The notes beneath the pieces were generated by a model. The model was not told where the DNA came from. It made no database searches and worked only from the letters and a program-made list of their open reading frames with translations. A program made the translations under genes and the position numbers. 64,000 nt of DNA from Deltaproteobacteria bacterium (GTDB taxonomy: Bacteria > Desulfobacterota > Desulfobaccia > Desulfobaccales > 0-14-0-80-60-11), in NCBI GenBank assembly GCA_021813445.1, contig JAKAKP010000140.1, positions 1,280-65,279 of the forward strand. Direction: 5' to 3'. This document shows, piece by piece, positions 2,671 through 21,756 of this stretch. Position 1 is the stretch's first letter. Every line of letters starts with the position of its first letter.

Positions 2671-2734
2671 CAGGGCCTTAGCCAATGTCCTTTTCTTGGG
2701 TTTCTTTACCTGCTGCAAATATTTGCCAAAAGCA

Positions 2735-4610: not shown

Positions 4611-5050
4611 GGCAGCTTGAGCGTCACCTGCCATCGGGGTGACCAAGCCCCTCACCAAAGGGGTGACTCTGTCGGTGGGACGCAAGTTAAATCCCGCGGA
4701 GGGGGATAATCCGTGCAATTGCGCCTGGAATACCGTATCAACCGCCATTTCAGCCTGGAAGCGGAAGGAGGTCAGAACCGGAAGGCAGCCGATGCCTTGT
4801 TCAACTATGAATGGTATTTCCCTGTATCCGATCAGGGGAATAAGTGCCGGTTAACCTTCGGCTAGATCGCCAGGTTTTGTTTAGGGCACCCAAGGCAATT
4901 CAAGATCCATTCTCGGGTTAGTTAAGAATGCCGATTACTCCTAGGTGCAAAGTCAAGTTCCAACGGCGCCCCGGTATTCTTTATAGAATCCAAGCCAGTC
5001 TCCTATTCGTGGTACCCCTCGCAAGTAGGACCGCAAGGAAGGTCGCGGAG

Positions 5051-5857
5051 TTACATAAACTCGGGCTCCGCCTGGGGTTCTTCCCTTTGCTTGAAGGGCT
5101 TGCGCTCTTCCCTGGCGGGTTTCTGTCCCCGGGGATAAATCACCGGCAGGGTTTGCAGAGCGCGGCCCGGGACCCAGCCCACCGCGCCGCTGGCAGGCTG
5201 GCGCACCTTAAACCAGCCGCCGCTCTCCCCGATCTTTTCCACCTGGGTGTTAAACTTAAGGGTTCTGATGACCTCGCTCCGGGGCGCGGGCTTGGATTTC
5301 AGGTTAAGTCTGGCAACCGCCACATAGTAATAGTTGCGGGCCGGCTTTTGCTGGGTCTCTTCGTACTGCGCGGTCAAAGCCGCGGCCGGAACCCAGCCCA
5401 AACTATGGCCCTTGATCACCAGGACCCGCCACCACCCCTGCTCTCCCTCCGCCACTTTTTGCACTTTCTCCCCCCGAAACAGCATCTGCAAGGGGAGGCA
5501 ATCTTGGCGGGGACACTCCTTAAGCGCTACGGTATCCGCGTTGATATAGTAAAACGCGGTGGGAACGGCCTCGGCACTGAGCAGCCCCTTCCGGACCCAG
5601 CCGCTCTGGCCGCTGCGCCGCACTTTCACCCGCCACCAGCCGGACTTGCCTTCCTCCATCTTTTCCACTTCATCACCCTGATAAAGCTGGCCCATGACAT
5701 TGGCAGCGTCACTGGGATTGTCTTTCAGATAGGTGATTTCCTGGTTCACATAGAAATGGGCCTGCGGGGCAGTAACCGGAGCAGTGGCGCAGGACCAGGC
5801 CAAGACCGAGACCAGGACCGCCAGCAGAAATCTTATCAGATGCTTGCGCGGCATCAC
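5051..5857 (-). CDS. Lipoprotein with three bacterial SH3 (SH3b) repeats
   Basis: Signal peptide with lipobox LAWSC. Three repeats end GWWRVKV..GQSGWVRKGLL, GWWRVLV..HSLGWVPAAAL and GGWFKVRQ..GAVGWVPGRAL. Confidence 0.8.
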   Translation of the reverse strand: MMPRKHLIRFLLAVLVSVLAWSCATAPVTAPQAHFYVNQEITYLKDNPSDAANVMGQLYQGDEVEKMEEGKSGWWRVKVRRSGQSGWVRKGLLSAEAVPTAFYYINADTVALKECPRQDCLPLQMLFRGEKVQKVAEGEQGWWRVLVIKGHSLGWVPAAALTAQYEETQQKPARNYYYVAVARLNLKSKPAPRSEVIRTLKFNTQVEKIGESGGWFKVRQPASGAVGWVPGRALQTLPVIYPRGQKPAREERKPFKQREEPQAEPEFM

Positions 5858-5871
5858 CGGTTCCTTCAGGA

Positions 5872-6459
5872 CTAGTCCGCCTTAGCCAAGGCGGAGATTT
5901 GCCATTGACCCGACTCCCGGGAAAAGGTGATCCAATAGGTCCGGGAAATATTCTGCTGCTTCATGGTGCTGATATTCTGCGCCTCAATCAGCCAGGTTAC
6001 CCGGGCCACCGCGGTATTGTCGGTCACGGGTTTGATCTCCTGGATCTCGAATGCCATTTTCGGGTAGTTATAGATCCTCCAGGCCTTGGAGATGCCTTGG
6101 GTGCGCTGCGTCAACTGCGGGAAGTTCGGGGAATAATAGCTCAAAAGTTGTGACAAATCCCTCTTCTGATTGGCCTCCCGGATGCCGGCCAGCACCTGCT
6201 CCAACTGGCTCCTTAAGTCGGGAGCCGGCGCGGTCGGGACTTTGGCGGCAATGGGAGGGGCGGCAGCCGCCTCGGGAGCCGGTAGGGCTTGCACCGGCGG
6301 AGCCTCTACCCCCTTGCCGGAGGTGGCAAAAAAGGCCCTGCCGTGAACAATAAACCAGAGGAGGTAGCTGACGAGCACCAACCCCAATACCGGCCCCAAG
6401 CCGTGAAACCAGAGAGATTTCCAGCGGGGCCAGAGGGTGGATTTAGGTCTATCAGTCAT
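5872..6459 (-). CDS. Membrane-anchored hypothetical protein with a Pro/Ala linker and a C-terminal NTF2/SnoaL-like region
   Basis: 195 aa with one N-terminal TM helix, a PA-rich linker and a C-terminal globular domain. It ends 15 nt upstream of the SH3b gene start, on the same strand. Confidence 0.55.
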   Translation of the reverse strand: MTDRPKSTLWPRWKSLWFHGLGPVLGLVLVSYLLWFIVHGRAFFATSGKGVEAPPVQALPAPEAAAAPPIAAKVPTAPAPDLRSQLEQVLAGIREANQKRDLSQLLSYYSPNFPQLTQRTQGISKAWRIYNYPKMAFEIQEIKPVTDNTAVARVTWLIEAQNISTMKQQNISRTYWITFSRESGQWQISALAKAD

Positions 6460-6656
6460 TTCCGGCGCTCAGCGAATCCTTAGGGGATATGATACCAAAA
6501 TTTGTACTGCTAAGGAAGGTGCGGGCCAGCCTCACCTGGGAATTGCCGTATGGTGCCGCGGCTCAATCTGTGGTAAGATAATATTGGGCATAATTTCTCA
6601 TAATAATTAACAAATGGCATCGTCATTTTTTACTGGCCTGAATCTAGTGCTACTGG

Positions 6657-8750
6657 TTGCCGAATTATGGAGTGCAAGTTAAGTTGATGTCAGCCACTGA
6701 TGATCTTCGAAAATTTCCCTGGTATTTTATTCTGATATTCTGCATTCTCTCCCTGGGAATACTAACGACGGGATATTTATATTACAAGAACCAGGAGGGG
6801 TACATCAAGAAAGAAAAGCAGCAAGAACTTGCTGCCATTATTGCCCTGAAAGTGGAGCAGATTATCTCCTGGCGCCAGGAACGCCTGGATTATGCCAGCA
6901 CTATTATGGATGACCCCTTTTTCGCCATGCAGGTGATGGATTTTTTCCGGGGGAAACCCAAGCCTCTGCTCCGGAAACAGATTCTGGAGCGGCTGACCAC
7001 CCTGGCCACATATCAATATCGCAGCCTGACTTTAGTCGACCCCCAGGGGCATGTCAGATTGGCGGCGCCGGCCTCAGGGCGGGAGCTTAACCCTTACCTG
7101 CAATCCCTGGCGGCGCAGGCAATCCAGACCCAAAAAGTCATTTTTTCAGATCTGTATCTGGATGAAGACTCGAAGCCCAGGCTCTGCGTCCTCACGCCGC
7201 TCCTGGTCATGCAGGGGGACAAGAAGATTACCGTGGGCGTGACTCTGATGAGCATCGAACCCTATCAGTTTCTTTATCCTCTGTTGAAAGAATGGCCCAC
7301 CCCGAGTCTGACCGGAGAGACCGAGCTGGTCCGCCGGGAGGGCCAGGAAGTGGTGTTTCTCAATGAACTCCGGCATCAGAAGAACGTTCCCCTGCACCTG
7401 CGGTTGCCCCTGGATTCCCCCCACCTGCTGGAGGCCAGGGTCGCCAGGGGGCAAAGAGGCATTGTGGAGGGCCTGGATTATCGGGGAGTGCCGGTTATTG
7501 CCGCGGGAGGAGCCATTCCGGACTCCTCCTGGTTTATCATCGCCAAGATCGACGCCGGCGAAATTTATGCCCCGCTGAAAAAGCTGACCCATGAAGTCGT
7601 TTTTCTCCTGATTATCTTGATCGGCAGCGCCGGCCTCGGTGTGGCCTATTTCTCGCGGAATCAGCAAATCAGCTTCTACCGCCGGCAATATGAAGTGGAG
7701 CGGGAGCGCCGCGCCCTGGCGCAGCGTTATGAGTATCTCACCAGGTTTGCCAATGACATCATCCTGGTGGCGGACAGGAATCTACTGATTGTGGAAGCCA
7801 ACGACCGGGCGGCGGTGGCCTACGGCTATGAGCGCGCTGAACTCCTGAAGCTCCATCTCCTGGATTTATATCCGCCGGGGTCGGAACGGGTTCTGGATAC
7901 CCTGATACTGCATGGCAAAGAAACCAGCGGGCTGATTTTTGAAGCTATTCAACAAAGGAAAGATGGTACGACTTTTCCAGCGGAGGTCAGCCTGCGCCAA
8001 TTGGAGATCGAAGGGGAGGTGTTGTTTCAGGAAATCATCCGGGATATCACTGAGCGCCAACGTACCGAGGAGGTGCTGCAAGAATCGGCCAAGAACCTGC
8101 GCCACCTGGCCTCGCAGCTGCTGCGGGCCCAGGAAGACGAGCGGAAACGAATCTCCCGGGAATTGCATGATCAACTGGGACACGCCTTGCTGGCCTTGAA
8201 GCTGCAGATCGAAGCGGTGGCCACCAAACTGTCTCCGGCCCAGAGTACTCTTAAAACCGAGATGCATAAGATCTTGGGCTACATGGGCACTACCATAGAA
8301 GAGGTGCGCCGCCTTTATCTGGATCTCAGCCCTGGCGACCTGGAGGACTTGGGTCTCACCGCGGCCCTGCAATCGTTGGTGGAGGATTTTGCCGACCTCC
8401 AAAAGCATGCGAAATTTACGCTCGATCTGGATGACCTGGACGGCCTCTTTGCCTTGCCGGTGCAGACCGCGATCTACCGGGTGGTGCAAGAAGCTTTGAC
8501 GAATATCGGCAAACACGCCCAACCGCAGCACGTGTCGCTGCAGATCAAGCGGGACGGGCAAAATGTCTCTTTTCTGATTGCCGACGACGGCAAGGGCTTT
8601 GACCGTCATTCAAACACCGACAAGAAAACCTTGGGCCTCCTGACGATGGCAGAGCGGGTGAGAATCCTGGGGGGCTCTTTTGACTTATGGAGCCAAAAAG
8701 GGCACGGCACCAAGATCTCCTTTACCATTCCCATAACCGGAGAATCATGA
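6657..8750 (+). CDS. Sensor histidine kinase (periplasmic sensor domain, PAS, HisKA_3, HATPase_c; NarX/DegS type)
   Basis: Two TM helices flank a domain of about 270 aa, followed by a PAS domain. H-box RISRELHDQLGHALLALK and ATPase motifs ALTNIGKHA and DDGKGF are present. TTG start at 6657; an alternative ATG (MSATDD) lies at 6687. Confidence 0.9.
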   Translation: MPNYGVQVKLMSATDDLRKFPWYFILIFCILSLGILTTGYLYYKNQEGYIKKEKQQELAAIIALKVEQIISWRQERLDYASTIMDDPFFAMQVMDFFRGKPKPLLRKQILERLTTLATYQYRSLTLVDPQGHVRLAAPASGRELNPYLQSLAAQAIQTQKVIFSDLYLDEDSKPRLCVLTPLLVMQGDKKITVGVTLMSIEPYQFLYPLLKEWPTPSLTGETELVRREGQEVVFLNELRHQKNVPLHLRLPLDSPHLLEARVARGQRGIVEGLDYRGVPVIAAGGAIPDSSWFIIAKIDAGEIYAPLKKLTHEVVFLLIILIGSAGLGVAYFSRNQQISFYRRQYEVERERRALAQRYEYLTRFANDIILVADRNLLIVEANDRAAVAYGYERAELLKLHLLDLYPPGSERVLDTLILHGKETSGLIFEAIQQRKDGTTFPAEVSLRQLEIEGEVLFQEIIRDITERQRTEEVLQESAKNLRHLASQLLRAQEDERKRISRELHDQLGHALLALKLQIEAVATKLSPAQSTLKTEMHKILGYMGTTIEEVRRLYLDLSPGDLEDLGLTAALQSLVEDFADLQKHAKFTLDLDDLDGLFALPVQTAIYRVVQEALTNIGKHAQPQHVSLQIKRDGQNVSFLIADDGKGFDRHSNTDKKTLGLLTMAERVRILGGSFDLWSQKGHGTKISFTIPITGES

Positions 8751-10244: not shown

Positions 10245-10494
10245 TGTCGGTGGTCAGTGGTCAGTAAAAGACAAGGCATACCGGAGGATTTCTCCCTCTC
10301 CCCCCGCCCCAGGAGTCCATTGCTCCTAACCGGCAATTCGCGGGGGGAGAGGGCTGGGGTGAGGGGGGCAAACTTTTCATCCTTTGTGGGTGCGCCTCAG
10401 GCCCATGAGGAGCTGTTACGAAAAGTTCCTATAGGTGGCGCAGGCTTTCCAGCCTGCGCGCCATTGCCGGGCGGGCGAGGACGCCGCCCCTACG
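10245..10494. repeat. Cluster of several short palindromic repeat elements
   Basis: Contains GGTCAGTGGTCAGT. Also contains CCCTCTCCCC...GGGGGGAGAGGGCTGGGGTGAGGGGGG. GGTGGCGCAGGCTTTCCAGCCTGCGCGCC is related to 29844 and 45531. ...CGCCGCCCCTACGA is related to the family B cores. Confidence 0.5.
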
Positions 10495-10566
10495 ATTCTT
10501 TTCATAATTTATGGGCGGGCCATAGGCCCTTCGGCCGTACCCCCGGGAAATGGGGAGAGAATAACC

Positions 10567-11316
10567 ATGCATCCCTATAAGATCGTCCTGGCCGATGATC
10601 ACACGATATTTCGGCAAAGCGTCAGGAGAGTGGTGGAAGAGGTCCCCGGCCTGGAGATCGTGGGAGAGGCCGCCAGTGGGCATGAATTGTTGCTGCTTCT
10701 GCAACAGACTTCTCCCCAGTTGGTTATTCTTGATCTTTCCATGCCGGATTATGGAGGCATGGCAGCCCTTAAAGAAATGAAACGCCCCCATCCCCGGGTT
10801 AAGGTGTTAATCTTAAGCATGCACAAAACCCGGGGACATGTTTATCGGGCAATATCCATGCAGGTTCAAGGATACCTGCTCAAAGAAGATACTCATGAGG
10901 AACTGATTGCCGCGATAAAGCTAATCCGGAGTGGCGGCACCTATTTTTCGCCGCTATTGGCCGGACAGATTTCCGAGATCAACGTAAAAAAGCGCCTCAG
11001 GGATTTGCTATTTCAAGAAGATCCTTTGAGTAACCGGGAAGCGCAAATCCTTAGTTTTTTGGCGGAAGGCAAAACCAGCCAACAAATCGCGGACCTTCTA
11101 TCTCTCAGCATCAAAACCGTAAATACCCATCGCCTGAAGATCAAAAGAAAGTTGGACCTTGGGAAATCCATTGAGTTGATAAAATACGCCATTCTCAAAG
11201 GATACATCATGGTGGACCCCGTTGAATTCCCGGAAGCATTAAACAATCCACCTGCGGTTAACGAAAGGTCTTCTCCGAAAAACTCAGAAGTTACCAGTAA
11301 AACCTCCTCAGGTTGA
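10567..11316 (+). CDS. Orphan response regulator, NarL/LuxR family, with a C-terminal tail of about 35 aa
   Basis: MHPYKIVLADDH...LVILDLSMP, LuxR HTH LSNREAQILSFLAEGKTSQQIA. ATG at 10567; the upstream part of the track ORF runs through repeats. Confidence 0.85.
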   Translation: MHPYKIVLADDHTIFRQSVRRVVEEVPGLEIVGEAASGHELLLLLQQTSPQLVILDLSMPDYGGMAALKEMKRPHPRVKVLILSMHKTRGHVYRAISMQVQGYLLKEDTHEELIAAIKLIRSGGTYFSPLLAGQISEINVKKRLRDLLFQEDPLSNREAQILSFLAEGKTSQQIADLLSLSIKTVNTHRLKIKRKLDLGKSIELIKYAILKGYIMVDPVEFPEALNNPPAVNERSSPKNSEVTSKTSSG

Positions 11317-12231: not shown

Positions 12232-12912
12232 TCAATGTCCAGCTCCAAGTTTGCCCAGCGCCTTGGTAAGTTCCATGGCCACGCCCAGGCCCTGCCGGGC
12301 TTCTTTACTACCCATGGCGCTCAACATGCCCAAGGGGCCCAAGGGTTTGGCCTCCTCCAGGTGGATGGCCGCGGGGAGTTCCAGCAGGCGATTCATGAAG
12401 TCGATCATCTGGGGATCGGACAACTTTTTCAGCATGCTCAAGAGCAGCACAAAGGCGTCGCTCATGGTGGCAATTTCCTCGGGGTCGTAATGGGCCGCCA
12501 CCTTGGCGCGGACCTCCAGCATGGCGGCATAAGTGCGAAAAACCCCTTTGCGCTCCAGGTTATCCATGTAGTTGATGAGATTGGGAACGGCGCTTTTTAA
12601 TAAAGGCTCCATGCATTTCCACATCTCGGAGAGGTTCTCCAGGGTCTCCAGGGCCTGGGTGAGGTTGCGGACGCTGCGGAGTCCCTGTTTCAGCAGGGCG
12701 AAGAGGTCTTCCAGTTGGAAGCCGGTCTCCAGGGTCCCCAGTTCCTCCAGCAGGATTTTACAGGCTGAATTCATCAGGGGCGCGAGGTCGTTCTTCAACT
12801 CGGTCAGGCCCTGTTGAGACTTGACCAGGGTTTGTATCTGGCCCTCCATCCGGTCGAGCCTCTCCAAGATCAGTTCTTCTGTGCCAGGTTTCTTCTCATT
12901 CTTATTAGGCAT
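12232..12912 (-). CDS. DUF1641-domain protein
   Basis: Helical protein with repeated L..L..L segments, as in DUF1641. ATG at 12912 is preceded by GAGAGGAGA; a TTG at 12930 would overlap the flavoprotein stop. It lies immediately downstream of the FAD oxidoreductase, the usual partner of this family. Confidence 0.7.
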   Translation of the reverse strand: MPNKNEKKPGTEELILERLDRMEGQIQTLVKSQQGLTELKNDLAPLMNSACKILLEELGTLETGFQLEDLFALLKQGLRSVRNLTQALETLENLSEMWKCMEPLLKSAVPNLINYMDNLERKGVFRTYAAMLEVRAKVAAHYDPEEIATMSDAFVLLLSMLKKLSDPQMIDFMNRLLELPAAIHLEEAKPLGPLGMLSAMGSKEARQGLGVAMELTKALGKLGAGH

Positions 12913-12926
12913 GGCCGTCTCCTCTC

Positions 12927-14171
12927 TCAACCATAGACATGATAGACATGTCCCAGCATTTTACCGGCCATGAACATCTGGGGTTCCAGGGGCAGTTCTT
13001 TGCCTTTGAGCATCATGTTGAAGTAGACCCACTTAAACATCATCTTGCCCCAGTAGTTGAAATGGCTTTCGCCCAGAAGGGTGAAGGGCCCCAGGCCCGG
13101 GAAGGGATATTTGCCCGGCAAGGGTTCTACTTTGTAGTTGAAGTCAATGAGGCTGGCCTTTTCGTAGCCGGTGACGATGAAGCAGGTGGAGTGGCCGTCG
13201 AATTCCGGCAGGGGCTCCTGGCCGTCGATTTCCCGGAGCAGGTTTTCCACGATGATGTCCGATTCATAGTGGGCCACGGCCCCGGCCTTGGAGGTGGGCA
13301 CGTTGGTGGCGTCGCCCACGATGTACATGTTCTCGTATTTTTTGGATTTTAAGGTGCCGTGGTCAGTGTCGAGGTAACCCATGGGGTCGCCGATCTCGCT
13401 GTCGATGATGACCTGGGCTCCGAAGTTGGGCGGAATAGTCACCAGCAAATCGTAATTGACCTCGTCGCCCTTGGCGGAAGATATTATCTTCTTGGCGGGG
13501 TCGACTTCGGCGATATCGAAGTTCGGGGTGATCCTGATCTTCTTCTCTTCGCACAGCTTGGTCAAAGCTGCGGTGGCCACCGGCTTGGTGAAGGCCCCGG
13601 AGAGCGGGGTCACCAGTTCCAGTTCGATGTCGTCCCGGACCCCGTTGACCGTGAAAAACCAGTCGGCCATGAAGATGAACTCCAGGGGCGCCACCGGGCA
13701 TTTGATGGGCATTTCGGCAATATTGAGGACGATCTTGCCTTTTTTGAAGTATTTCCATCTCTTGTAAAGGGCGATGGCGCCATCCGGGGTATAGAAGTCG
13801 TGGATGTCGCCGTGCCAGTCGTCCTTCATGCCGTCGATTTCGCCAGGCATGATCCGGCAGCCGGTGGCTATCACCAGCCAGTCATAGTCAACCTGCCCCT
13901 TTTTGGTCTTGATCCGTTTCTTGACCGGGTCGATATTGGTGACTTCGTCCAACACGAAATCGATACCCGGGAGGACAAAATCCATCTTGGGTTTAATGCA
14001 GTCCTCGGCCTTGTAAACGCCGAAGGGGATGAAGAGCCAGCCCGGCTGATAGTGGTGCTGCCGGTCCCGGTCAATCACGGTAATCTTCCAGTCGTTGTCG
14101 AGCTTCTCTCGCATTTTCGTGGCTACCATGGTGCCACCGGCTCCATACCCCAAAATTACCAGTTTTTTCAT
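12927..14171 (-). CDS. NAD(P)/FAD-dependent oxidoreductase, sulfide:quinone oxidoreductase/NDH-2-like (Pyr_redox_2)
   Basis: 414 aa. N-terminal dinucleotide fold MKKLVILGYGAGG, then ...HHYQPGWLFIPFG..., and a second Rossmann fold KIVLNIAEMPIKCPVAPLEF, typical of SQR-type flavoproteins. Confidence 0.85.
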   Translation of the reverse strand: MKKLVILGYGAGGTMVATKMREKLDNDWKITVIDRDRQHHYQPGWLFIPFGVYKAEDCIKPKMDFVLPGIDFVLDEVTNIDPVKKRIKTKKGQVDYDWLVIATGCRIMPGEIDGMKDDWHGDIHDFYTPDGAIALYKRWKYFKKGKIVLNIAEMPIKCPVAPLEFIFMADWFFTVNGVRDDIELELVTPLSGAFTKPVATAALTKLCEEKKIRITPNFDIAEVDPAKKIISSAKGDEVNYDLLVTIPPNFGAQVIIDSEIGDPMGYLDTDHGTLKSKKYENMYIVGDATNVPTSKAGAVAHYESDIIVENLLREIDGQEPLPEFDGHSTCFIVTGYEKASLIDFNYKVEPLPGKYPFPGLGPFTLLGESHFNYWGKMMFKWVYFNMMLKGKELPLEPQMFMAGKMLGHVYHVYG

Positions 14172-14323
14172 AGACCTCGCCTTTCTTGTAATTTGATCCA
14201 GTTCCTCGGCAGGAATTGGAAGGCATTCCTGTACTTGAGATGGTTGGCCGCCAGGCCAACGTTTGGAAAACCTGCGTTAAGGGCAGACCTGCGGGTCCAC
14301 CTCGAGAGCGCCTCCTGAGGCTC

Positions 14324-15091
14324 TTACAAACCCTTTTTCTTCCAGTTGCGGGTCACATTGGTCAGGAAAAATTCTTTAACCAGACGGCGCCAGCCAAGCT
14401 GCGGAAAATGGCCATAGACATCGCCGACGAGCGCGCCGCCGGACGGCAAGGTTAATCCCACCGTGGTTTCCATGAGGTTCAGCAAGCGCCAGGATTCTTT
14501 GGCAATCCAGGCCTCGTTATTCTCTTTGGAAGAGAGGCTGGCCAAATTCTGCCGGAGATTGGTCGGTTTGACCTTGAACAGCCAGCCTTCGCCATAGGGA
14601 TCGCGATGGAGCAGACGGGGATTCTGACAAACCTCGGGATTGACTGCCGTGACTAGACCGTCCACCGGAGCCTCAAAGGAAGCCTTGTGCTCCTTTTTGA
14701 TCAGAGCCATGCAGATGTGATCCTGAAAAAAGACTGCGCCCACTTCGGGTAATCTCAGGGCGTCAGCCGGACCCAGTATCTTCTGGGAAAAGTCATCCAG
14801 CCCCACCCGCACTTCGCCGCTCTCTTCGAGCGCTACCCAGGCGTGGCCCCGGTGCAGATAATAGTCCTCGGGAGGGGCTTGTACCCCGAGGGCTTCCACC
14901 ATCCCCGGTTCAGGGTGGGGTTCGGGGGCTGGGCCACCTTCTTTCAGAGGGTGGTGGTCTACCCGCCAGACTGCCCCACATTTTTGACACACGCACTTAT
15001 ACTCTGACTGGGTGCCGTTCTTAGGGCCAGGAACCTCACAGACCAGCCAATGCCCGGCCATGGCCCCGCAATTCTTACAATCGAGTCTCAT
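14324..15091 (-). CDS. Zinc-ribbon / GcvH-fold protein with conserved C-terminal extension (paralog 1)
   Basis: N-terminal CKNCG...CQKCG ribbon. The core YYLHRGHAWV..VRVGLDDFSQKILGPADALRLPEVG...APVDGLVTAVN...DPYGEGWLFKV aligns with glycine-cleavage H proteins. An extra tail of about 80 aa ends in WKKK. RBS GGAGG. Confidence 0.8.
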   Translation of the reverse strand: MRLDCKNCGAMAGHWLVCEVPGPKNGTQSEYKCVCQKCGAVWRVDHHPLKEGGPAPEPHPEPGMVEALGVQAPPEDYYLHRGHAWVALEESGEVRVGLDDFSQKILGPADALRLPEVGAVFFQDHICMALIKKEHKASFEAPVDGLVTAVNPEVCQNPRLLHRDPYGEGWLFKVKPTNLRQNLASLSSKENNEAWIAKESWRLLNLMETTVGLTLPSGGALVGDVYGHFPQLGWRRLVKEFFLTNVTRNWKKKGL

Positions 15092-15136
15092 GTGATCAGT
15101 CCTCCACCAGGACGGATTTCCGCCCCGGACCTCCGG

Positions 15137-15751
15137 TTAACGTTTCTTCCAGTCCTTGATCAAGTTGGTTAAAAAGAACTCCTTAGCCAGACGCCGCCAG
15201 GTCAAACGGGGATAATGCCCGCAAACATCATCGAGGATGACCCCGCCCATGGGGAGAGCGGCTCCCACAGTGGTGCTGAGGATAAAAAGCAACCTCTGGG
15301 CCTCCTGTTCGATCCAGGTGACATTGGAATCACCGTAAAACAACTGGTCGAGATTTTGCGGCAGATTGGTGGGTTGGACCGTGAACAGCCAGCCTTCGCC
15401 ATAAGGATCGCCATGGATCAGGCCGGGGCTCTGCCGCGCCCGGGGATTGATGGAAGTGATAATGCCGTCCACCGGGGCTTCGATGGAGGCTTTGCGTCCT
15501 TCCCGGAACAGCGCCAGGCACACATGGTCCTGATAGTAGGTCTTGCCGATTTCGGGCAATTGCACTTCGTCCGCCGGCCCCAGGATCTTCTGGGAAAAGG
15601 CGTCCAAACCGACCCGCACCAGGCCCGAGTCTTCAGGCACCGCCCAGGTGTGGCCCCGGTGCAGATAATAAATATCGGTCGGCACTTGGAAGCCGTAGAC
15701 GTCCACAAGCTGATGCCTTGGGGCGCGGGTTTCGCAACTGGCACCGGTCAT
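15137..15751 (-). CDS. GcvH-fold protein with conserved C-terminal extension (paralog 2, no zinc ribbon)
   Basis: Same core and tail as paralog 1. ATG at 15751 has GGAGG 8 nt upstream; the track start at 15766 is a GTG. Confidence 0.8.
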   Translation of the reverse strand: MTGASCETRAPRHQLVDVYGFQVPTDIYYLHRGHTWAVPEDSGLVRVGLDAFSQKILGPADEVQLPEIGKTYYQDHVCLALFREGRKASIEAPVDGIITSINPRARQSPGLIHGDPYGEGWLFTVQPTNLPQNLDQLFYGDSNVTWIEQEAQRLLFILSTTVGAALPMGGVILDDVCGHYPRLTWRRLAKEFFLTNLIKDWKKR

Positions 15752-15811
15752 GACTTGGACCTCCACCTCAAGCCTTCCTCTGATCTGATCCCCACCTTGG
15801 CATGACGGCCA

Positions 15812-16559
15812 TCAGGATTTTTTCTTCCATTCCCGGGTCAGGCTGGTGAGAAGAAACTCCTGGACCAGGGGCCGCCAGCCCAACTGGGGATAATTTCCAT
15901 AGACGTCATCAATAATGGTGCCGCCATCCGGCCCGGTGACTCCCACTTCGCTTTCCATGAGATTGATTAAGCGATGGGACTCCTGATGCATCCAATCGGC
16001 CGTGGCGTCTCCGGAAAACAGGTTGGTCAAATTGCGCTGGAGGTTGATGGGCCAGACCTTGAACAGCCAGCCGGCGCCAAAAGGATCGTTATGGATCAGG
16101 CGGGGATTCTCACGCACCTTGGGATTGATTGCCGTAATGGCGCCATCCACCGGGGCGAGAAAGGAAGCCTTCCGGCCCTGTCTGACCAGGGAGAGGCAGA
16201 TGTGATCCTGATAGTACGTCTTGCCGAGATCTGGCAGCTTCACCTCGTCTGCGGGCCCGAAGATCTTCTGGGAAAAGGCGTCCAGTCCCACCCTCACTTC
16301 GCCGGTGTCTTCGAGCACGGCCCAGCTATGTCCCGGGTGCAGGTAACAGTCACTGGCGGGCACTCCAAAACCGAAGATTTCCACTTCCTGGTTATTCCTG
16401 CTCTTCATGTCTGCCATTCCTTCCTTAAAAAGGTTGTGTTTTTCGATGAACCAGGTTCTTCCCACATTTGCGGCAGATGCACTTGCCGAGGGGTTTAGTT
16501 TTGTCGTGATAAAAGATCTCACTCCGCCAAGGCCCGCATCTTTTGCAAAGGATTTCCAT
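15812..16559 (-). pseudogene. Zinc-ribbon / GcvH-fold paralog 3, split by a 1-nt frameshift (or two coupled ORFs)
   Basis: A 44-aa ribbon ORF (MEILCKRCG...CRKCGKNLVHRKTQPF*, 16559-16425) is followed by the GcvH-fold body in another frame. The frame of the body upstream of its first Met reads GRTWFIEKHNLFKEG, homologous to paralog 1 AVWRVDHHPLKEGG. AGGAGG RBS precedes 16559. Confidence 0.7.
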
Positions 16560-16656: not shown

Positions 16657-16673
16657 GGCAAATTACGGGCCAA
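16657..16673 (-). promoter_or_regulatory. Sigma-54 (-24/-12) promoter candidate for the GcvH-like/flavoprotein operon
   Basis: The minus strand reads TTGGCCCGTAATTTGCC, against the consensus TGGCACG-N4-TTGCW. GG and GC are separated by exactly 10 nt. It lies about 100 nt upstream of the ATG at 16559. Confidence 0.6.
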
Positions 16674-16833
16674 ACCTGCGATGCCAGGGTAACCATCTAT
16701 AATTACAGCAATATTTATGATCACTCCCCATGCTTTCCCATCATCCGCCAGCGGCAAGGCGAGGTTTTGGTGAAAATTCGCACAGAGGCTCGGCTAAAAT
16801 TCGCTAACCCATTGATAATTATGGATGATTATT

Positions 16834-16850
16834 TGTACGAAAATCGCACA
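16834..16850. promoter_or_regulatory. 17-bp imperfect palindrome TGTACGAAAATCGCACA (putative activator-binding UAS, copy 1)
   Basis: TGTACGA-N3-TCGCACA. The 20-nt core GTACGAAAATCGCACAAAGA is identical to copy 2. It lies about 165 nt upstream of the sigma-54 promoter. Confidence 0.5.
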
Positions 16851-16908: not shown

Positions 16909-16925
16909 CGTACGAAAATCGCACA
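16909..16925. promoter_or_regulatory. Palindrome CGTACGAAAATCGCACA (putative UAS, copy 2)
   Basis: Exact 20-nt repeat of copy 1, 75 nt further upstream. Confidence 0.5.
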
Positions 16926-16993: not shown

Positions 16994-17599
16994 TTACAGG
17001 TCTTGGAGGCTTTGAAAGTAATCGTCCAGCAGGATCAGACAATATTTGCACAGTCCGGTTTTCTTTTGGTCCAATTTTTCCAGGTTGGCGGCAAAGCCCA
17101 TGAGACAGCCGTCTTGGCGGCAGTGGGGGAGGCCGAAGGTATGGCCCAATTCATGTAAGCTTAACTTGATGAGCCGGCTTAATAAGAGGGATCTGGACGG
17201 TTTGACTTCCCCGGCGCCGGCGCCGGGACGAAAGGTTGAAATAATGGCGGCTTTGCCGTCCAACTGGGCCTCGCCAAAGACAAAAGTGAATATGGGAATG
17301 TAAAGATCCGCCGCGGTTATCCCCAGGATTCGAAAAGGATCTTCTCCGTGCTCGTCATTGAGCAGATAATCCAGGAGTTGGGTGGAATAATACTGATTAC
17401 GCCCTGGGTGATGGGTCTGGGGGGGCAGAGGTCTGGTGGGCAAAATCTTTACCGGCAGGAAAAGAAAATCGGCAATGGCCTGGCGTAAATCAGGCAAGAT
17501 CAGGTGATCCACCGGGGCCAGGGGAACCAGGCCCAGAAACGGACGGTATGACATATAGTGAACCGCTCTACAGCCCGGAAGCCGCAGGCTGAGCCCCAA
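16994..17599 (-). CDS. Archaemetzincin-family zinc metalloprotease (Amz-like)
   Basis: HELGHTFGLPHCRQDGCLM...CKYC matches the archaemetzincin signature HExxHxxGx3Cx4CxM...CxxC. The TTG start abuts the regulator stop; an alternative ATG lies at 17554. Confidence 0.85.
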   Translation of the reverse strand: MGLSLRLPGCRAVHYMSYRPFLGLVPLAPVDHLILPDLRQAIADFLFLPVKILPTRPLPPQTHHPGRNQYYSTQLLDYLLNDEHGEDPFRILGITAADLYIPIFTFVFGEAQLDGKAAIISTFRPGAGAGEVKPSRSLLLSRLIKLSLHELGHTFGLPHCRQDGCLMGFAANLEKLDQKKTGLCKYCLILLDDYFQSLQDL

Positions 17600-18949
17600 T
17601 CAGGGCGTTAAGCCATACTTTTTCATTTTTTCATAGAGAGTGCCGCGATTGATCCGAAGGACCTTGGCCGTATTGGAGATGTGACCACCCTGTGCGGTCA
17701 GGACTAAAGCGATGTGGCGGCGCTCCATTTCCCCCAAGGAGAGGTTGGCCACTTCCTCGGTGCCCTCCGAAGTCAGCGCGAAGGGCAGGTCACCGGGTTT
17801 GATCTGCCGGCCTTTGCCCACCACCACCGCCCGTTCGATGGCGTTTTGCAATTCCCGGATGTTTCCCGGCCAGGAATAACGCCGCATCGCCGCCAGAGAC
17901 TCCAGATGAATGCCATCAATCTTTTTGCCGGTCTCGGTGGCATAGCGTCGCAGGAAGTGCTTGGCCAGCAGGGGAATATCTTCCTGCCGCTCCCGCAAGG
18001 GAGGGACCTGCAAGTGAATGACGTTGAGGCGGTAGTAGAGATCCTGGCGGAAAGTCCGGTTGCGGATGCTTTCCTGCAGGTCCTGATGCGTGGCGGCAAT
18101 GACCCGGAAGTCGCTGGTGATCGCCGTGGTTCCTCCAACCCGGCTGAATTCGTGGGTTTCCAAGACTCGCAGAAGATCGATCTGCATCTTCATGGAGATG
18201 TCCCCCACTTCATCCAGAAAGAGGGTGCCGGTATTGGCCATTTCCAACCGGCCTTTCTTGGTGAATTTGGCATCGGTGAAGGCGCCTTTCTCGTGGCCGA
18301 AGAGCTCGCTCTCCAGGAGATGTTCCGTAAAGGCGCCGCAGTTGATGGCAATGAAGGGATTGTAACCGCGAGGGCTATGGGTGTGAATGGTCCGGGCCAC
18401 CAACTCCTTGCCGGTGCCGGTCTCCCCGGTAATCAACACGGTGGCGTCGCTTTGGGCCACCTTGACGATGGTCTCAAAAAGACTGAGCATCGGGGGGGAT
18501 TGGCCCACCAGGTTGTCAAAGCGGCTGATGGACGCTATCTGGTCCTTGAGAATCAAGTTTTCCATGGCCAGGGTCTGAATTTGCACCAGTTTCTCGATGG
18601 TGAGGCTGAGCTCATCCAACTCGAAAGGCTTCAGGAGATAATCGTTGGCCCCCAGCTTCATGGCCTCCACCGCGTCCTGAATGGCGCCGTGGGCCGTCAT
18701 CATCACTACAGAGGAATCGGGATCTTCCTCTTTCAGTTTCTTGAGCAGGGTGATCCCATCCATTCCCGGCATTTTGACGTCCACCAGCATGATGTCGTAG
18801 TGGCGTTCTTTGACCTTGGCCAGGGCCTCCAGGCCGCCGGCCGCAGTTTCCACCTCATAGCCATCCTGCTTTAGCCAATCACAGAAGGCTTCCCTGATGC
18901 TCAACTCATCATCCACTACCATGATGCAGATTTTTTTATGAGGCAACAT
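17600..18949 (-). CDS. Sigma-54-dependent response regulator (NtrC family: REC, AAA+, Fis-type HTH)
   Basis: REC (MVVDDE...MLVDVKMPGMDG), Walker A GETGTGKE, sigma-54 contact loop ESELFGHEKGAFTDA and a C-terminal HTH ...NTAKVLRINRGTLYEKMKKYG. The ATG at 18949 (MLPHKK) overlaps the kinase 3' end by 14 nt. Confidence 0.95.
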   Translation of the reverse strand: MLPHKKICIMVVDDELSIREAFCDWLKQDGYEVETAAGGLEALAKVKERHYDIMLVDVKMPGMDGITLLKKLKEEDPDSSVVMMTAHGAIQDAVEAMKLGANDYLLKPFELDELSLTIEKLVQIQTLAMENLILKDQIASISRFDNLVGQSPPMLSLFETIVKVAQSDATVLITGETGTGKELVARTIHTHSPRGYNPFIAINCGAFTEHLLESELFGHEKGAFTDAKFTKKGRLEMANTGTLFLDEVGDISMKMQIDLLRVLETHEFSRVGGTTAITSDFRVIAATHQDLQESIRNRTFRQDLYYRLNVIHLQVPPLRERQEDIPLLAKHFLRRYATETGKKIDGIHLESLAAMRRYSWPGNIRELQNAIERAVVVGKGRQIKPGDLPFALTSEGTEEVANLSLGEMERRHIALVLTAQGGHISNTAKVLRINRGTLYEKMKKYGLTP

Positions 18950-21227
18950 GGTCTTCCCCCGATTTTTGGGCGGGCAGACGTATGCTGAAGCAAGTACCCC
19001 GCCCCACCACACTGTGAACTCGAATGACCCCCTGGTGGTCCCCGATTATGCCCTGCACCACGGCCAGACCCAGCCCCGCGCCCAGGCCACCCGGCTTGGT
19101 GGTATAGAAGGGTTCAAAAATCTGGGCAAACTTGTCTCGGGGTATGCCCCCGCCGGTGTCGGCGATGAGCACCAGGGCCTCCCGATGTCTGGTATTTCTG
19201 GTGACAACGGTTAAGGTGCCCTCTTTGGGCATGGCATCCCGGGCATTGATCAGCAGGTTCAAAAAGACCTGCTTCATCTTCGCCGGATCGGCCCGCACCG
19301 GCAAGAGATCGGGAGCATAACGCGTTTCCACCGTGATTCCTTGCAACCGCATCTGGAATTCGGTTAACGCTAAAGTCTCCCCCAATAAGTTGTTGAGATC
19401 CACCGCCTTGAATTCCGGCTTGGCGCGGCGGGAAAAAGGCAGCAAGCTGGAAACGGTTTTGCTCACCCGTAATATTTCTTTGTAGATCAACTCCGTATGT
19501 TTTTTCATCATGCCCATGGCCTCCTGGTCGGGAGACTCCGCATCCATGATGCGTTTGATCATCCTGGCGGAACTGAGAATACCGGTCAACGGATTGTTGA
19601 TCTCGTGGACGACGCTGGCGGATAATTTTCCCAAAGAGGCGATCTTGTCTTCGTCCATCATGCGGGTGCGGCTGATTTCATGGGTGATATCCCGGGACAG
19701 ATCGACCACTCCCCGGATTTGTCCTTCCTCATCGAACAGCGGGTGGCAAACCACGTGTAGATAACTTTCCCGGCCATCCTTGTCAAAGTGGATGTGGATG
19801 GCGGAAGCGGCCTTGCCGGTGGCTACGGTCTTTTTTAAGGGACAGGGATGGTCAGGGCTGGAGCAAGGCTGCTGCGAGCGGTGGGATACTTCATAACAAT
19901 GCCGCCCCACCACGTCTTCGCGTTTTAGACCTATCATTTCCAGCAGCGCCCGGTTGACCTCGACAATGCGATAATCGAGATCAATGACCATCATATGGTC
20001 CTTGATGCCGTTGACGATGGTTTCCAGAAAGGCCTTCTCCTTGATGGCCTGCCGCAGCAGCTCCCGGGTTTCGGCTTGCGATCTTTGCAGAGCTTCTTCC
20101 AACTGCTTCCGGGCGGTAATGTCCGTGATGACCTCCACCACCCGTTTTTGGGTGGCTTCCGGAGGGAATAAAGGCGACATGGTGATTTCGTCGACCCGTA
20201 TCATTCCCTCGGGACTGGCATGCCACTGACAGACCTGGACGGTTTCGCAGTTTTCGAGGACGCGGGGCATAGGACAGGTCAAGCCTTTCCGGTCACAAGG
20301 CTCATCGATCTGATGCAGCACCTCATAACAAGGCCTGCCGATAACCTCTTCCAACTTTTTTTCAAAGCGGGCCAAGAAGGTGCGATTGGCTTCATCCACT
20401 ACATAATTGGGGAGTAAGACGAGCACCGGATCAGGCAGGTGGTCAAAAATCTTTTGGAACCGGCTGCGCTGTCCGGCCAGCTTAATTTCGCTTTCCACCT
20501 TGCAGCGCAGACGGTCTCCATTCCTCTGCAACAATTCCCAGAAAAGCCGGGCCTTAATATGATCGATAATCTGGGTGTGGGGGTGCCGGCGCTGGATAAT
20601 GCCCTCCCGCACCAGCGGGTCGCCGGTAAGTTCCAGGATCAAGTCCGGGGCCTTTTCCAGCAAAGAGGAATAGTCGCTAAAGGTGGAGATGCCCAGACGC
20701 TCAGCCAAGGCTAACCCCGGGGCCCGGGAATTGGAATCAGCCACCCCGACAATCTCGATCTTGCGCCGGTATCCCGGCTTCCTGGTGATCAGCTGCAGCA
20801 CCTCTTGACCTGCCCTGCCAGCGCCGACAATGGCGATTTTCAAGGGAGAGACGTCCTGAATCGACAGGTCCACAGGAATGAGGTCCCAAAAGGCCTCCAG
20901 AGTAAATTCCGGCCGGTCCGCACTCAGAACCGTTAACCGTTTGGGAGCTTGCTCATAAAGCTGTTGAGCTACTTCGGGACGCCCAGTGGCGTCGACAATG
21001 ATGTCCACTTCCGGGAGATGGAATAAGTCAGCCAGATCCAGGGTCACAAAGAGGTTAAAGCGATAGGCATAGATTATCCCGGGAGCTTCCGGGTTAATGT
21101 CCGCCACCGCCACGATCCGCAAGGATTGCTCTTGTTTTCGGGGAGGCACCAAGGCTTCCAGGATCGCCATGCCTTGCCGCCCCGCGCCGACAATAGCCAG
21201 GTTATATGACTTTTTGTCAGGATTCAT
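18936..21227 (-). CDS. Histidine kinase with two N-terminal Rossmann-like modules and two Cys-rich PAS domains
   Basis: YNLAIVGAGRQG and LKIAIVGAGRAG (GxGxxG) lie in two modules of about 130 aa. Two PAS domains each carry CYEVxH-x5-PC-x6/7-CP. H-box SASVVHEINNPLTGI, then HATPase (DTGGGIP, GLGAGLGLAVV). Start MNPDKK at 21227. Confidence 0.9.
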   Translation of the reverse strand: MNPDKKSYNLAIVGAGRQGMAILEALVPPRKQEQSLRIVAVADINPEAPGIIYAYRFNLFVTLDLADLFHLPEVDIIVDATGRPEVAQQLYEQAPKRLTVLSADRPEFTLEAFWDLIPVDLSIQDVSPLKIAIVGAGRAGQEVLQLITRKPGYRRKIEIVGVADSNSRAPGLALAERLGISTFSDYSSLLEKAPDLILELTGDPLVREGIIQRRHPHTQIIDHIKARLFWELLQRNGDRLRCKVESEIKLAGQRSRFQKIFDHLPDPVLVLLPNYVVDEANRTFLARFEKKLEEVIGRPCYEVLHQIDEPCDRKGLTCPMPRVLENCETVQVCQWHASPEGMIRVDEITMSPLFPPEATQKRVVEVITDITARKQLEEALQRSQAETRELLRQAIKEKAFLETIVNGIKDHMMVIDLDYRIVEVNRALLEMIGLKREDVVGRHCYEVSHRSQQPCSSPDHPCPLKKTVATGKAASAIHIHFDKDGRESYLHVVCHPLFDEEGQIRGVVDLSRDITHEISRTRMMDEDKIASLGKLSASVVHEINNPLTGILSSARMIKRIMDAESPDQEAMGMMKKHTELIYKEILRVSKTVSSLLPFSRRAKPEFKAVDLNNLLGETLALTEFQMRLQGITVETRYAPDLLPVRADPAKMKQVFLNLLINARDAMPKEGTLTVVTRNTRHREALVLIADTGGGIPRDKFAQIFEPFYTTKPGGLGAGLGLAVVQGIIGDHQGVIRVHSVVGRGTCFSIRLPAQKSGEDHVAS

Positions 21228-21287
21228 GAAGAACTCCCAAAACCGGATAACGCCTCTGGTGCCAGCCACGGGGCCGCTGCTACCCCT

Positions 21288-21304
21288 TGTACGATAATCG
21301 CACA
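21288..21304. promoter_or_regulatory. Palindrome TGTACGATAATCGCACA (copy 3 of the UAS-like motif) upstream of the kinase gene
   Basis: 16/17 identical to copy 1, 61 nt upstream of the kinase ATG. Confidence 0.45.
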
Positions 21305-21756
21305 AATAAGCAAGCGCCATTTGGCATTAGCTTAACACGAATCTGCAAACCATGCCATTTTTTGATTAAAAAATGAACATCGCTGCCATCAGATCAGTAA
21401 GGGAGGGGTAGGCGAGTGTGTCTGTGAGGGGGGGGACCGGAAAAAATTTTTTCTAATACTGCTTAGAAGCTAGCGAAAACCTGCCTTTCTTTTTATTATT
21501 TCAAACAGTTATCAGTTGCGCGAGGTGTTCCGCCAATCTGTGGGCCGCTGGATCGAATCCGGCAAGGCGCGCCAGTTTAGCAAAATGAACAGCCCCCCGG
21601 CAGTCACGCCAAGTTTGGAGTTGAGTCGGAGGCAAGTCAAGCCGGAAATCCTCGAGGATCATTGGGAAGCCAGGAGCTCTGGGCTGACCTGGCCCCAACT
21701 CAAACTCAAGTTCTGGGATGATCCTGGGAACCAGGTAGGTTGTTCAACCAGACATC

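Follow-up and report, generated by a model that had tools for sequence, protein, structure and literature searches.

The kinase gene and its domains

In a 64,000-nucleotide stretch of Deltaproteobacteria bacterium DNA (contig JAKAKP010000140.1, positions 1,280 to 65,279; hereafter the window), we characterized a minus-strand gene at 18936..21227 whose product is a cytoplasmic, multi-input sensor histidine kinase of the HisKA/NtrB-AtoS-ZraS type. Its domains run in the order Rossmann module 1, Rossmann module 2, a conserved helix, PAS1, PAS2, HisKA, and HATPase_c. Everything that marks a HisKA-class sensor kinase is present: a HisKA domain with its phospho-acceptor histidine (H541, within the motif HEINNPL, which orthologs keep), a HATPase_c domain, and an adjoining response regulator gene. 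The gene and its parts are as follows.

18936..21227, minus strand: sensor histidine kinase gene, 763 amino acids, without a transmembrane helix (open reading frame, ribosome-binding site, Pfam, hydropathy)
20874..21212, minus strand: Rossmann-type input module 1, residues 6-118 (Pfam NAD_binding_3)
20520..20852, minus strand: Rossmann-type input module 2, residues 126-236 (Pfam GFO_IDH_MocA, AlphaFold2, Foldseek)
20442..20519, minus strand: conserved helical linker between module 2 and PAS1, residues 237-262 (helix predicted)
20073..20441, minus strand: PAS domain 1, residues ~263-385 (Pfam PAS_8, PAS_4, PAS_9)
20271..20330, minus strand: PAS1 site C300-x4-H305-x5-C311-x6-C318-P (pattern match; four residues invariant in 19 of 19 orthologs)
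19668..20036, minus strand: PAS domain 2, residues ~398-520 (Pfam PAS_4 at 410-516)
19839..19898, minus strand: PAS2 site C444-x4-H449-x5-C455-x6-C462-P (pattern match; invariant in 19 orthologs)
19425..19634, minus strand: HisKA dimerization/phospho-acceptor domain, residues 532-601 (Pfam, 37.5 bits against a cut-off of 26.9)
18966..19289, minus strand: HATPase_c catalytic domain, residues 647-754 (Pfam, 81.6 bits; Protein Data Bank [PDB] match to ZraS, 9jfj, expectation value [E] 3e-32)

At its full extent the minus-strand open reading frame spans 18936..21320. We prefer the ATG at 21227 over the longer start at 21320, which we dropped, because GGGAG lies 6 nt upstream as a ribosome-binding site, ortholog N-termini coincide with this codon, and public collections hold the exact 763-amino-acid product with an identical start. 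The highest Kyte-Doolittle mean in any 19-residue window is 1.3, so the kinase is soluble and a membrane-sensor reading is ruled out. The architecture proposed in an earlier reading made from the sequence alone (the sequence-only reading), a soluble kinase lacking a transmembrane helix and carrying tandem Rossmann-type modules and two Cys/His PAS domains, is thus borne out by Pfam, hydropathy, and motif matching.

Conservation among orthologs

Scanning genome contigs for the kinase yielded 29 loci, all in Desulfobaccales/Desulfobacca-type metagenome-assembled genomes, and we aligned 19 full-length orthologs (751-778 amino acids, 58-76% identity), in which 26% of all columns are invariant. Conservation is unevenly spread. 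PAS2 is the most conserved region (41% of columns invariant, with H478, H480, and H495 also invariant), the 237-262 linker follows at 38%, and the Rossmann modules are the least conserved at 15-19%. All eight of the PAS motif Cys and His residues are invariant and five other cysteines vary; at region-specific rates, and treating columns as independent, the chance of eight out of eight is ~1.4e-4. Loss of these cysteines from orthologs would have counted against a ligand site, and the sequence-only reading stands on this point. It had also singled out a C-x5-C-x-W-H string in PAS1, which is present in the window kinase (C327, C333, W335, and H336) but is not conserved, with C333 and H336 each retained in 1/19 orthologs and C327 in 14/19. 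Within the modules, the invariant residues are G14, G16, G19, D43, T81, G135, G137, D164, T201, G202, D222, and H223.

Many public homologs (P0005, P0007, P0020, P0021, and others) are only 280-445 amino acids long, with tails out of frame. Because their C-termini are out of frame and full-length orthologs were recovered, we regard them as frameshifted or fragmentary gene calls, which rules out both truly truncated Rossmann-PAS proteins and a TGA-encoded selenocysteine at a motif cysteine. Such short frameshifted entries are typical of noisy long-read metagenome assemblies, and they make the family resemble short Rossmann-PAS proteins.

The tandem modules are truncated Rossmann domains

Module 1 begins with LAIVGAGRQG (residues 10-19) followed by IVAVAD (38-43), and module 2 with IAIVGAGRAG (131-140) followed by IVGVAD (159-164). 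The sequence-only reading had reported these strings, and they are found at residues 10-43 and 131-164; it was also right that there are two modules, but it placed the second at residues 165-290 rather than ~126-236 because numbering from two start codons was mixed. Landmarks in module 1 are GAGRQG at 14-19, D43, with which strand 2 ends, and T81-G82 after strand 4; those in module 2 are GAGRAG at 135-140, D164, T201-G202, D222-H223, and a terminal ARLFWELL helix, so that both copies retain GxGxxG and an acidic residue ending strand 2. Compared with one another, the modules prove homologous, with 28% identity and E 1e-13. Pfam NAD_binding_3 matches residues 14-94 with 42.9 bits (cut-off 24), covering profile positions 1-78 of 116 only, and GFO_IDH_MocA (PF01408) matches residues 129-197 with 45.1 bits (cut-off 24), covering positions 1-66 of 120 only.

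Modeled together by AlphaFold2, the modules each adopt the order b1-aA-b2-aB-b3-aC-b4-aD-b5-aE, with a predicted local distance difference test score (pLDDT) of 75 and a predicted template modeling score (pTM) of 0.51; Foldseek searches with this tandem model returned weak matches only. Module 2 modeled alone from a 47-sequence alignment gives a confident five-stranded Rossmann domain (pLDDT 91.3, pTM 0.84). In the predicted fold the canonical places are taken by the glycine loop, by the acidic residue at which strand 2 ends, and by the T-G that follows strand 4, and the Asp falls immediately after strand 2, which is the canonical adenine-ribose position of Rossmann folds and usually favors nicotinamide adenine dinucleotide (NAD) over its phosphate (NADP). 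Structure prediction thus leaves the proposed dinucleotide pocket standing.

The top nine Foldseek matches to module 2 at E ≤1e-3 are acylating acetaldehyde dehydrogenases, bar one PurN chain. The dehydrogenase matches (1nvm, 4lrs/4lrt, 7z3s, 8ih7, and 4jn6) have template modeling scores of 0.62-0.69, root-mean-square deviations of 2.1-3.1 Å over ~100 residues, and 21-26% identity; the next ranks are other NAD(P) Rossmann domains, namely DapB, PYCR1, and Gfo/Idh/MocA enzymes. A profile of the module searched against the PDB behaves similarly, matching DmpF (1nvm_B, E 1e-6 over 98 of 108 positions), further acetaldehyde dehydrogenases, and Rex (5zz5, E 3e-5). The modules had been likened to Gfo/Idh/MocA- or homoserine dehydrogenase-type folds; the Rossmann type holds, but the nearest relatives are the acylating acetaldehyde dehydrogenases and then Rex.

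None of these enzyme families accounts for the module as a whole. NCBIfam scores are far below cut-off for acetaldehyde dehydrogenase (TIGR03215, 31.4 bits against 282), homoserine dehydrogenase (26.5 against 205), and Rex (24.7 against 126, E 1.5e-5), the likeness to Rex spanning strands 1-4 only. Neither Pfam nor AlphaFold2 places a Gfo/Idh/MocA C-terminal alpha/beta substrate-binding/catalytic domain in the kinase, where module 2 is followed by the linker and PAS1, and a Pfam scan of the kinase finds no catalytic Homoserine_dh domain. The catalytic Cys and C-terminal dimerization domain of the DmpF family are absent, the module stopping ~15 residues past strand 5, and the Pfam scan places no helix-turn-helix or Rex winged-helix domain in the kinase, module 1 starting at residue 6. 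Each module is therefore a compact, five-stranded, catalytically truncated copy of an acylating acetaldehyde dehydrogenase/Rex-type dinucleotide-binding domain.

Weak matches to Pfam CoA_binding (residues 6-48) and to the flavin adenine dinucleotide (FAD)-NAD(P)-binding family NAD_binding_9 (residues 11-55, and also in the related protein P0055) were noted. Because both copies keep GxGxxG and the Asp ending strand 2, NAD+/NADH is the most likely ligand; binding of NAD(H) by both modules is plausible. They are noncatalytic dinucleotide-type domains, and our best guess is that they would bind NAD(H) in the window kinase.

A Cys3His site in both PAS domains

Pfam PAS_4 matches PAS2 over residues 410-516, with an E of 1.4e-31 for the whole protein. 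Both PAS domains carry the motif G-R-x-C-Y-E-V-x-H-x4-P-C-x6-C-P; the sequence-only reading had the G-R-x-CYEV-x-H part right and the spacing beyond it wrong, giving H-x5-PC and x6-7. Among solved structures the best sequence matches are LOV domains, in which C444 aligns with the photoactive Cys and is followed by a 4-residue insertion. Because of this alignment, we place the three cysteines on Ealpha, the Ealpha-Falpha loop, and the start of Falpha, and the site would then lie in the usual PAS cofactor pocket. LOV-type flavin binding itself is ruled out, since the motif reads GRHCYEVSH plus the insertion rather than the flavin-adduct motif GxNCRFLQ, and c-type heme is ruled out by motif regions lacking CxxCH.

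Three-Cys PAS domains are known from two characterized sensors. In OrpR, C52, C61, and C65 hold a [4Fe-4S] cluster (PMC8359166), and in Bacillus licheniformis NreB, which senses sulfide and controls sqr, C63, C66, and C78 hold a [2Fe-2S] cluster that has a labile sulfur ligand (PMC13478379). The site in the window kinase matches the spacing of neither, and at most it may work in the way that those sensors do. Among 145 proteins of the module family described below, 39 have a Cys-rich PAS domain after the module, in a long form (C-x10-C-x6-C) or a short form (C-x10-C-x2-C), and the three cysteines are invariant or nearly so across 29 such domains. Protein homology searches for the motif beyond the module family returned a few short fragments only. 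We found no solved structure with this motif, and no description of it in the literature searched, the coverage of which was limited.

The modules belong to a widespread input-domain family

We built a profile (A3, ~108 positions) from 11 modules and scored it against 1.84 billion cluster representatives; 1805 clusters matched at E ≤1e-3, and 1155 still did so at E ≤1e-10. Matches lie nearly always at protein residues ~7-113, and so sharp a boundary means that ordinary dehydrogenases are not being gathered. In weak homologs, single copies are joined straight to a HisKA, PAS, or sigma54 AAA+ domain. Tandem copies are a minority, and a three-copy architecture also occurs: P0055 (811 amino acids) and P0057 (345 amino acids) have three tandem copies, each parted by a charged coiled-coil-like linker, and in P0055 they precede a Cys-rich PAS domain (GKKCYNAFPGPLCHTAKCP) and a kinase core. 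A Pfam scan of 85 members gave the following partner domains.

PAS: 69 of 85 members
HATPase_c: 58 of 85
HisKA: 52 of 85
Receiver: 10 of 85
GAF: 7 of 85
GGDEF: 4 of 85
GerE (LuxR): 4 of 85
Sigma54_activat: 2 of 85
HD_5 (HD-GYP): 2 of 85

No Pfam model for the module itself is among the 25 families matched most often in these 85 members, and an isolated consensus-type module finds no match in NCBIfam. Where members are named, they belong to Desulfobacteria, Desulfobacterales, Nitrospirota/Thermodesulfovibrionales, and Calditrichaeota, and their annotation goes no further than "PAS domain S-box protein", "response regulator", or "ATP-binding protein". The module is thus a discrete N-terminal input-domain family of kinases, sigma54 activators, and cyclic di-GMP enzymes in anaerobes. 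As judged by profile and signature, the copies in the window kinase are members of this distinct family and not a one-off fusion.

The family signature reads G-x-G-x-x-[CG], G-V-A-[DCS]-x-N-P-x-A-x-G, E-L-T-G, K-P, and D-H-x-x-A-R-L-F-W, and both window modules align with it. The most conserved columns are G7, G9, position 12, G33-V-A, position 36, N-P-x-A-x-G, E-L-T-G, K-P, D-H, and A-R-L-F-W, which correspond to the glycine loop, to the loop that follows strand 2, and to the T-G and D-H that follow strands 4 and 5, respectively. The window kinase departs from the usual pattern by carrying Gly at position 12 of each copy; its strand 2 ends in Asp. In most members, Cys at positions 12 or 36 raises the possibility of thiol-based or otherwise noncanonical chemistry. 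One subfamily reads GVASRNP, a pattern typical of NADP sites, and NADP, coenzyme A (CoA), or FAD may be the ligand particularly in subfamilies with Ser or Cys at position 36.

In the literature searched, within its limited coverage, we found no paper that describes histidine kinases with a Rossmann-type input domain. Nothing is new in the fold or the kinase class, nor in the idea that PAS domains can hold Fe-S clusters and Rossmann domains can sense NADH; what is new lies in how the domains are combined, in the tandem copies of the input module, in the as yet unnamed family, and in the Cys spacing.

The partner regulator and a probable target operon

The kinase gene is followed by a response regulator gene and, farther along the minus strand, by an operon that encodes GcvH-like proteins and a sulfide quinone reductase (SQR). 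The features of this region, together with the candidate DNA sites, are as follows.

17600..18949, minus strand: sigma54-dependent NtrC-type response regulator (Pfam Response_reg, Sigma54_activat, HTH_8; NCBIfam AtoC/NtrC/ZraR-like)
16994..17599, minus strand: archaemetzincin-like Peptidase_M54 gene, between the response regulator and the GcvH-like operon
12232..16559, minus strand: probable target operon with a 44-amino-acid open reading frame, three GcvH-like paralogs, type III SQR, and a DUF1641 protein (Pfam, NCBIfam, synteny)
16425..16559, minus strand: 44-amino-acid Zn-ribbon-like open reading frame, MEILCKRCGPWRSEIFYHDKTKPLGKCICRKCGKNLVHRKTQPF (AGGAGG ribosome-binding site; CxxC...CxCxxC)
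14324..16522, minus strand: three tandem GcvH-like paralogs, ~200-255 amino acids (Pfam GCV_H three times)
12232..14171, minus strand: type III SQR flavoprotein and DUF1641 protein with overlapping start (Pfam Pyr_redox_2; NCBIfam)
16657..16672, minus strand: sigma54-type -24/-12 element, TGGCCCGTAATTTGCC (pattern match)
21288..21304, minus strand: 17-bp palindrome, TGTGCGATTATCGTACA, candidate regulator site 60-77 nt upstream of the kinase ATG
16909..16925, minus strand: 17-bp palindrome, TGTGCGATTTTCGTACG, candidate enhancer site upstream of the GcvH-like operon
16834..16850, minus strand: 17-bp palindrome, TGTGCGATTTTCGTACA, candidate enhancer site upstream of the GcvH-like operon

The regulator ATG at 18949 overlaps the kinase stop, and the overlap is kept in ortholog loci. 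In most of the 29 related loci the order is kinase, regulator, M54, and GcvH-like genes (2-4 copies), with GcvH-like genes at 22 of the 29, the M54 gene kept at the same place in ~20, and an SQR gene following in four (L007, L012, L018, and L021); the orientation of the GcvH-like genes varies. In 15 of these 22 loci the GcvH-like genes have a strict sigma54 -24/-12 pattern just upstream, the background being 0.09 per kb; across 434 kb of ortholog loci the pattern has 39 matches, of which 17 are at GcvH-like genes. The 17-bp palindrome (TGTGCGA-N3-TCGTACA form) has only three sites in the 64-kb window, against 0.02 expected, two of them upstream of the sigma54-type element and one upstream of the kinase gene. 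The exact palindrome is not conserved among orthologs; what recurs is its TGT-N11-ACA outline alone, L018 and L021 carrying four such palindromes with other inner sequence at the same position. A sigma54 promoter upstream of the kinase gene is also rejected, where two TGGCA stretches have the wrong GG-to-GC spacing and the pattern has no match.

The proposed link from the kinase to the flavoprotein/carrier operon thus fared well, being upheld by synteny, sigma54-type promoters, and shared palindromes, and the comparative evidence supports well the view that the kinase-regulator pair would control the GcvH-like/SQR operon. The flavoprotein scores 672.7 bits against the NCBIfam model SQR_III (NF049943, "type III sulfide quinone reductase, selenoprotein subtype"; cut-off 525), and since its reading frame is uninterrupted it is presumably a Cys form. 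Because the flavoprotein is a type III SQR, sulfide or sulfane sulfur becomes a candidate signal, one that the sequence-only reading had not considered. The gene is a sulfide-oxidation gene within a sulfate-reducer-type lineage.

The GcvH-like paralogs retain the lipoyl-lysine position, [RH]-K-A-S-x-x-A-P-V-D-G, and have a common ~60-residue C-terminal extension ending W-R-R/P-L-x-x-E-F-[FL]-L-T; no GcvH model, NF045810 ("GcvH-related protein") among them, gives them a score that reaches its cut-off. The true start of the first copy is likely ATG 16417. The 44-amino-acid reading frame sits between the sigma54-type element and this first copy; it has a counterpart at the same place in L021 (an MKCRK...EIFFHE... 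frame) and an MKCKK start in L018, and GcvH_a (14324..15091) has a comparable Cys-rich N-terminal extension.

Several further observations concern this neighborhood. A weaker fourth palindrome copy, CTGTGCGAATTTTCACCAA, lies at ~16776..16795, farther downstream within the intergenic region that precedes the GcvH-like operon. Several genomes have the kinase-regulator-GcvH-like arrangement twice (L013; L023; L004 with L018; L011 with L021), and in L013 and L023 (~1800-7600) the opposite strand carries, immediately upstream, a more distant kinase, sigma54 regulator, GcvH-like, and M54 set. At 10435..11316, on its plus strand, the window encodes another response regulator, of LuxR type (Response_reg plus GerE); L007, L009, L012, and L016 have a relative of it (36-37% identity) just upstream of the kinase. 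Upstream of the kinase in the window are acyl-CoA genes, an AMP-binding ligase and an enoyl-CoA hydratase, which are not syntenic elsewhere among the loci.

A model for signal integration and its alternatives

We propose that each Rossmann module would bind a dinucleotide, most likely NAD+/NADH, and that ligand occupancy or redox state would alter the packing of the modules. This change could be relayed along the conserved ARLFWELL/linker helix to the helical spine formed by the PAS and dimerization/histidine-phosphotransfer domains, although how the modules would signal to the kinase core is speculative because of the pTM of 0.51 of the tandem model. Each PAS domain would hold a metal centre on three Cys and a His in the Ealpha-Falpha pocket; if OrpR and NreB are a guide, this centre is most likely an Fe-S cluster, and it would report redox potential or sulfide/sulfane sulfur. 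The combined signal would set autophosphorylation of H541, and the kinase would phosphorylate the sigma54-dependent regulator encoded by the overlapping downstream gene. The phosphorylated regulator may then bind the TGT-N11-ACA palindromes, activate the sigma54 promoter of the adjoining operon, and perhaps autoregulate. The kinase probably couples cellular redox or sulfide status to the adjoining sulfide-oxidation operon, and we give the explanation as a whole, from a two-input kinase with Rossmann and Cys-PAS sensing through the sigma54 regulator to the GcvH-like/SQR operon, slightly better than even chances.

Several observations weigh against this model. Binding of a dinucleotide, a metal, or a cluster is deduced throughout from sequence and predicted fold, confidence between the modules is low in the tandem prediction, and DmpF-type domains bind CoA besides NAD+. 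Among orthologs G140, which is the third glycine of module 2, can also be A or C. Across the family, position 12, the third glycine, is Cys in 78% and Gly in 17% (consensus GGGPGC), and position 36, at the end of strand 2, is Asp in 63%, Cys in 22%, and Ser in 12%; because these positions vary, the family may lack one common ligand or use other chemistry. The PAS Cys spacing is unlike that of both OrpR and NreB, NreB is outside the best 60 of 253 PDB matches to the Cys-PAS profile, the motif His varies across the wider set of 29 Cys-PAS domains, and the Cys3His site could equally be a structural zinc site. For the DNA sites, the sigma54-like element in the window has two mismatches to consensus and alone is not significant, none of the 29 ortholog loci contains the 17-bp palindrome as such (≤3 mismatches, 434 kb), and it is by comparing loci that we connect the regulator with the operon.

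These points leave room for other explanations, one being that the modules are nonbinding Rossmann relics that serve in dimerization or as a scaffold, that the PAS sites hold structural zinc, and that sensing lies elsewhere, for example in a partner protein. Cys3His is a combination of ligands classically found around zinc, no region of the kinase is less conserved than the modules (15-19% of columns invariant), the third glycine of module 2 is variable, and the AlphaFold2 model leaves the tandem packing uncertain. Yet the residues that stay invariant in these poorly conserved modules are exactly the canonical dinucleotide loops, and repeated recruitment of the family to the N-terminus of many output types is the behavior of an input domain. 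The wider Cys-PAS set moreover fixes three cysteines while the fourth ligand varies, which is closer to the Fe-S sites of OrpR and NreB than to a fixed zinc site, and we think relics with zinc sites improbable. We see a similarly small chance that the modules bind NADP(H), CoA/acyl-CoA, or FAD and that the kinase reports carbon or thioester status rather than the NADH/NAD+ ratio. DmpF-type acylating aldehyde dehydrogenases, which are the closest relatives of the module, use one domain for both NAD+ and CoA; the weak CoA_binding and NAD_binding_9 matches, the Ser or Cys at position 36 in a third of the family, and the GVASRNP subfamily point the same way. In the window kinase and all 19 orthologs, however, Asp ends strand 2 in both modules, the profile also matches Rex, an NADH sensor, and the upstream acyl-CoA genes, as noted above, are not syntenic with the kinase in other loci.

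A further alternative concerns the PAS domains, whose cysteines could be metal free and sense sulfane sulfur or oxidants by forming persulfides, polysulfides, or disulfides. FisR, SqrR, and CstR are thiol-based sulfane-sulfur sensors that regulate sqr, FisR being a sigma54 activator, and here the candidate target operon carries a type III SQR and the three conserved cysteines are near one another in sequence. Against such a thiol switch, the invariant motif His and H478, H480, and H495 of PAS2 suggest metal ligation, the site would be in the buried PAS cofactor pocket, and both characterized three-Cys PAS sensors, OrpR and NreB, hold Fe-S clusters; its chance seems to us smaller still.

We keep to the model of a kinase with Rossmann and probable Fe-S PAS inputs. 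More tentatively, and with odds clearly below even, we suggest that the module is a widespread cytoplasmic, Rex-like NAD(H)-sensing input family in kinases, sigma54 activators, and cyclic di-GMP enzymes, two copies here being combined with two Cys3His Fe-S PAS domains so as to integrate NADH/NAD+ with sulfide or redox signals and control an uncharacterized sulfur pathway of GcvH-like (lipoyl-carrier-like) proteins and a type III SQR. Direct sensing of the pyridine-nucleotide pool is known for Rex, a one-component repressor. Naming the family (at least 1155 clusters) would fill blank N-terminal regions in signaling proteins of sulfate reducers, Nitrospirota, and related anaerobes, and the Cys3His PAS site would, by analogy, be a third spacing variant of Fe-S PAS sensors beside NreB and OrpR. 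A Cys3His PAS kinase adjoining an sqr operon makes sulfide sensing in a sulfate-reducer lineage directly testable, and the conserved pairing with triplicated GcvH-like proteins and type III SQR points to an uncharacterized sulfur- or lipoate-linked pathway with a regulatory handle.

Comparison with known systems

The core of the kinase resembles AtoS, ZraS, and NtrB, with a PAS-HisKA-HATPase_c arrangement (AtoS, E 9e-85, 285 bits; ZraS 9jfj, at the E given above) and an NtrC-type partner. Nonetheless, the AtoS score compares with an equivalog cut-off of 646, all equivalog scores are far below their cut-offs, and unlike these kinases the window protein has no membrane or periplasmic sensor and has a different N-terminal input.

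The PAS domains are most readily compared with those of OrpR of Desulfovibrio vulgaris (PMC8359166), which is of the same phylum and shares sigma54 regulation and a three-Cys PAS site in the same region of the fold. The OrpR cysteines (C52, C61, and C65) correspond to positions of ~52, 63, and 70 in the window PAS domains, the spacing being C-x8-C-x3-C with a nearby Asp/Glu in OrpR and C-x10-C-x6-C in the window. OrpR is a one-component activator, whereas the window PAS domains are in a kinase, are doubled, and carry an invariant His. NreB is likewise a cytoplasmic PAS histidine kinase with three conserved cysteines between strand B and strand G and an sqr gene nearby; however, its spacing is C-x2-C-x11-C(-x2-C) rather than C-x4-H-x5-C-x6-C, and we detected no specific sequence relationship among the best 60 of 253 PDB matches to the Cys-PAS profile. 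Its partner NreC is LuxR type, whereas the window regulator is a sigma54 activator, and NreB has no Rossmann modules where the window kinase has two.

For the modules, the NAD-binding domain of DmpF/MhpF/BphJ/HsaG (1nvm_B, 4lrs, 4jn6, 7z3s, and 8ih7) is the best match in both profile and fold, with the glycine loop, xAxG after strand 2, T/S after strand 4, and ID after strand 5 in common. Unlike DmpF, the module ends after strand 5 and helix E, without the catalytic Cys, dimerization domain, or aldolase partner, and is joined to signaling domains, in tandem in the window kinase. With Rex (5zz5, 3wg9, and 2vt2) it shares GxGxxG followed by an Asp-terminated strand 2, and we liken it to Rex as a Rossmann dinucleotide domain that may serve as a sensor of NADH and not as an enzyme. 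It differs from Rex in scoring below the family cut-offs and in having neither the winged helix nor the domain-swapped C-terminal helix; the output of Rex is DNA binding, whereas that of the window protein is a histidine kinase.

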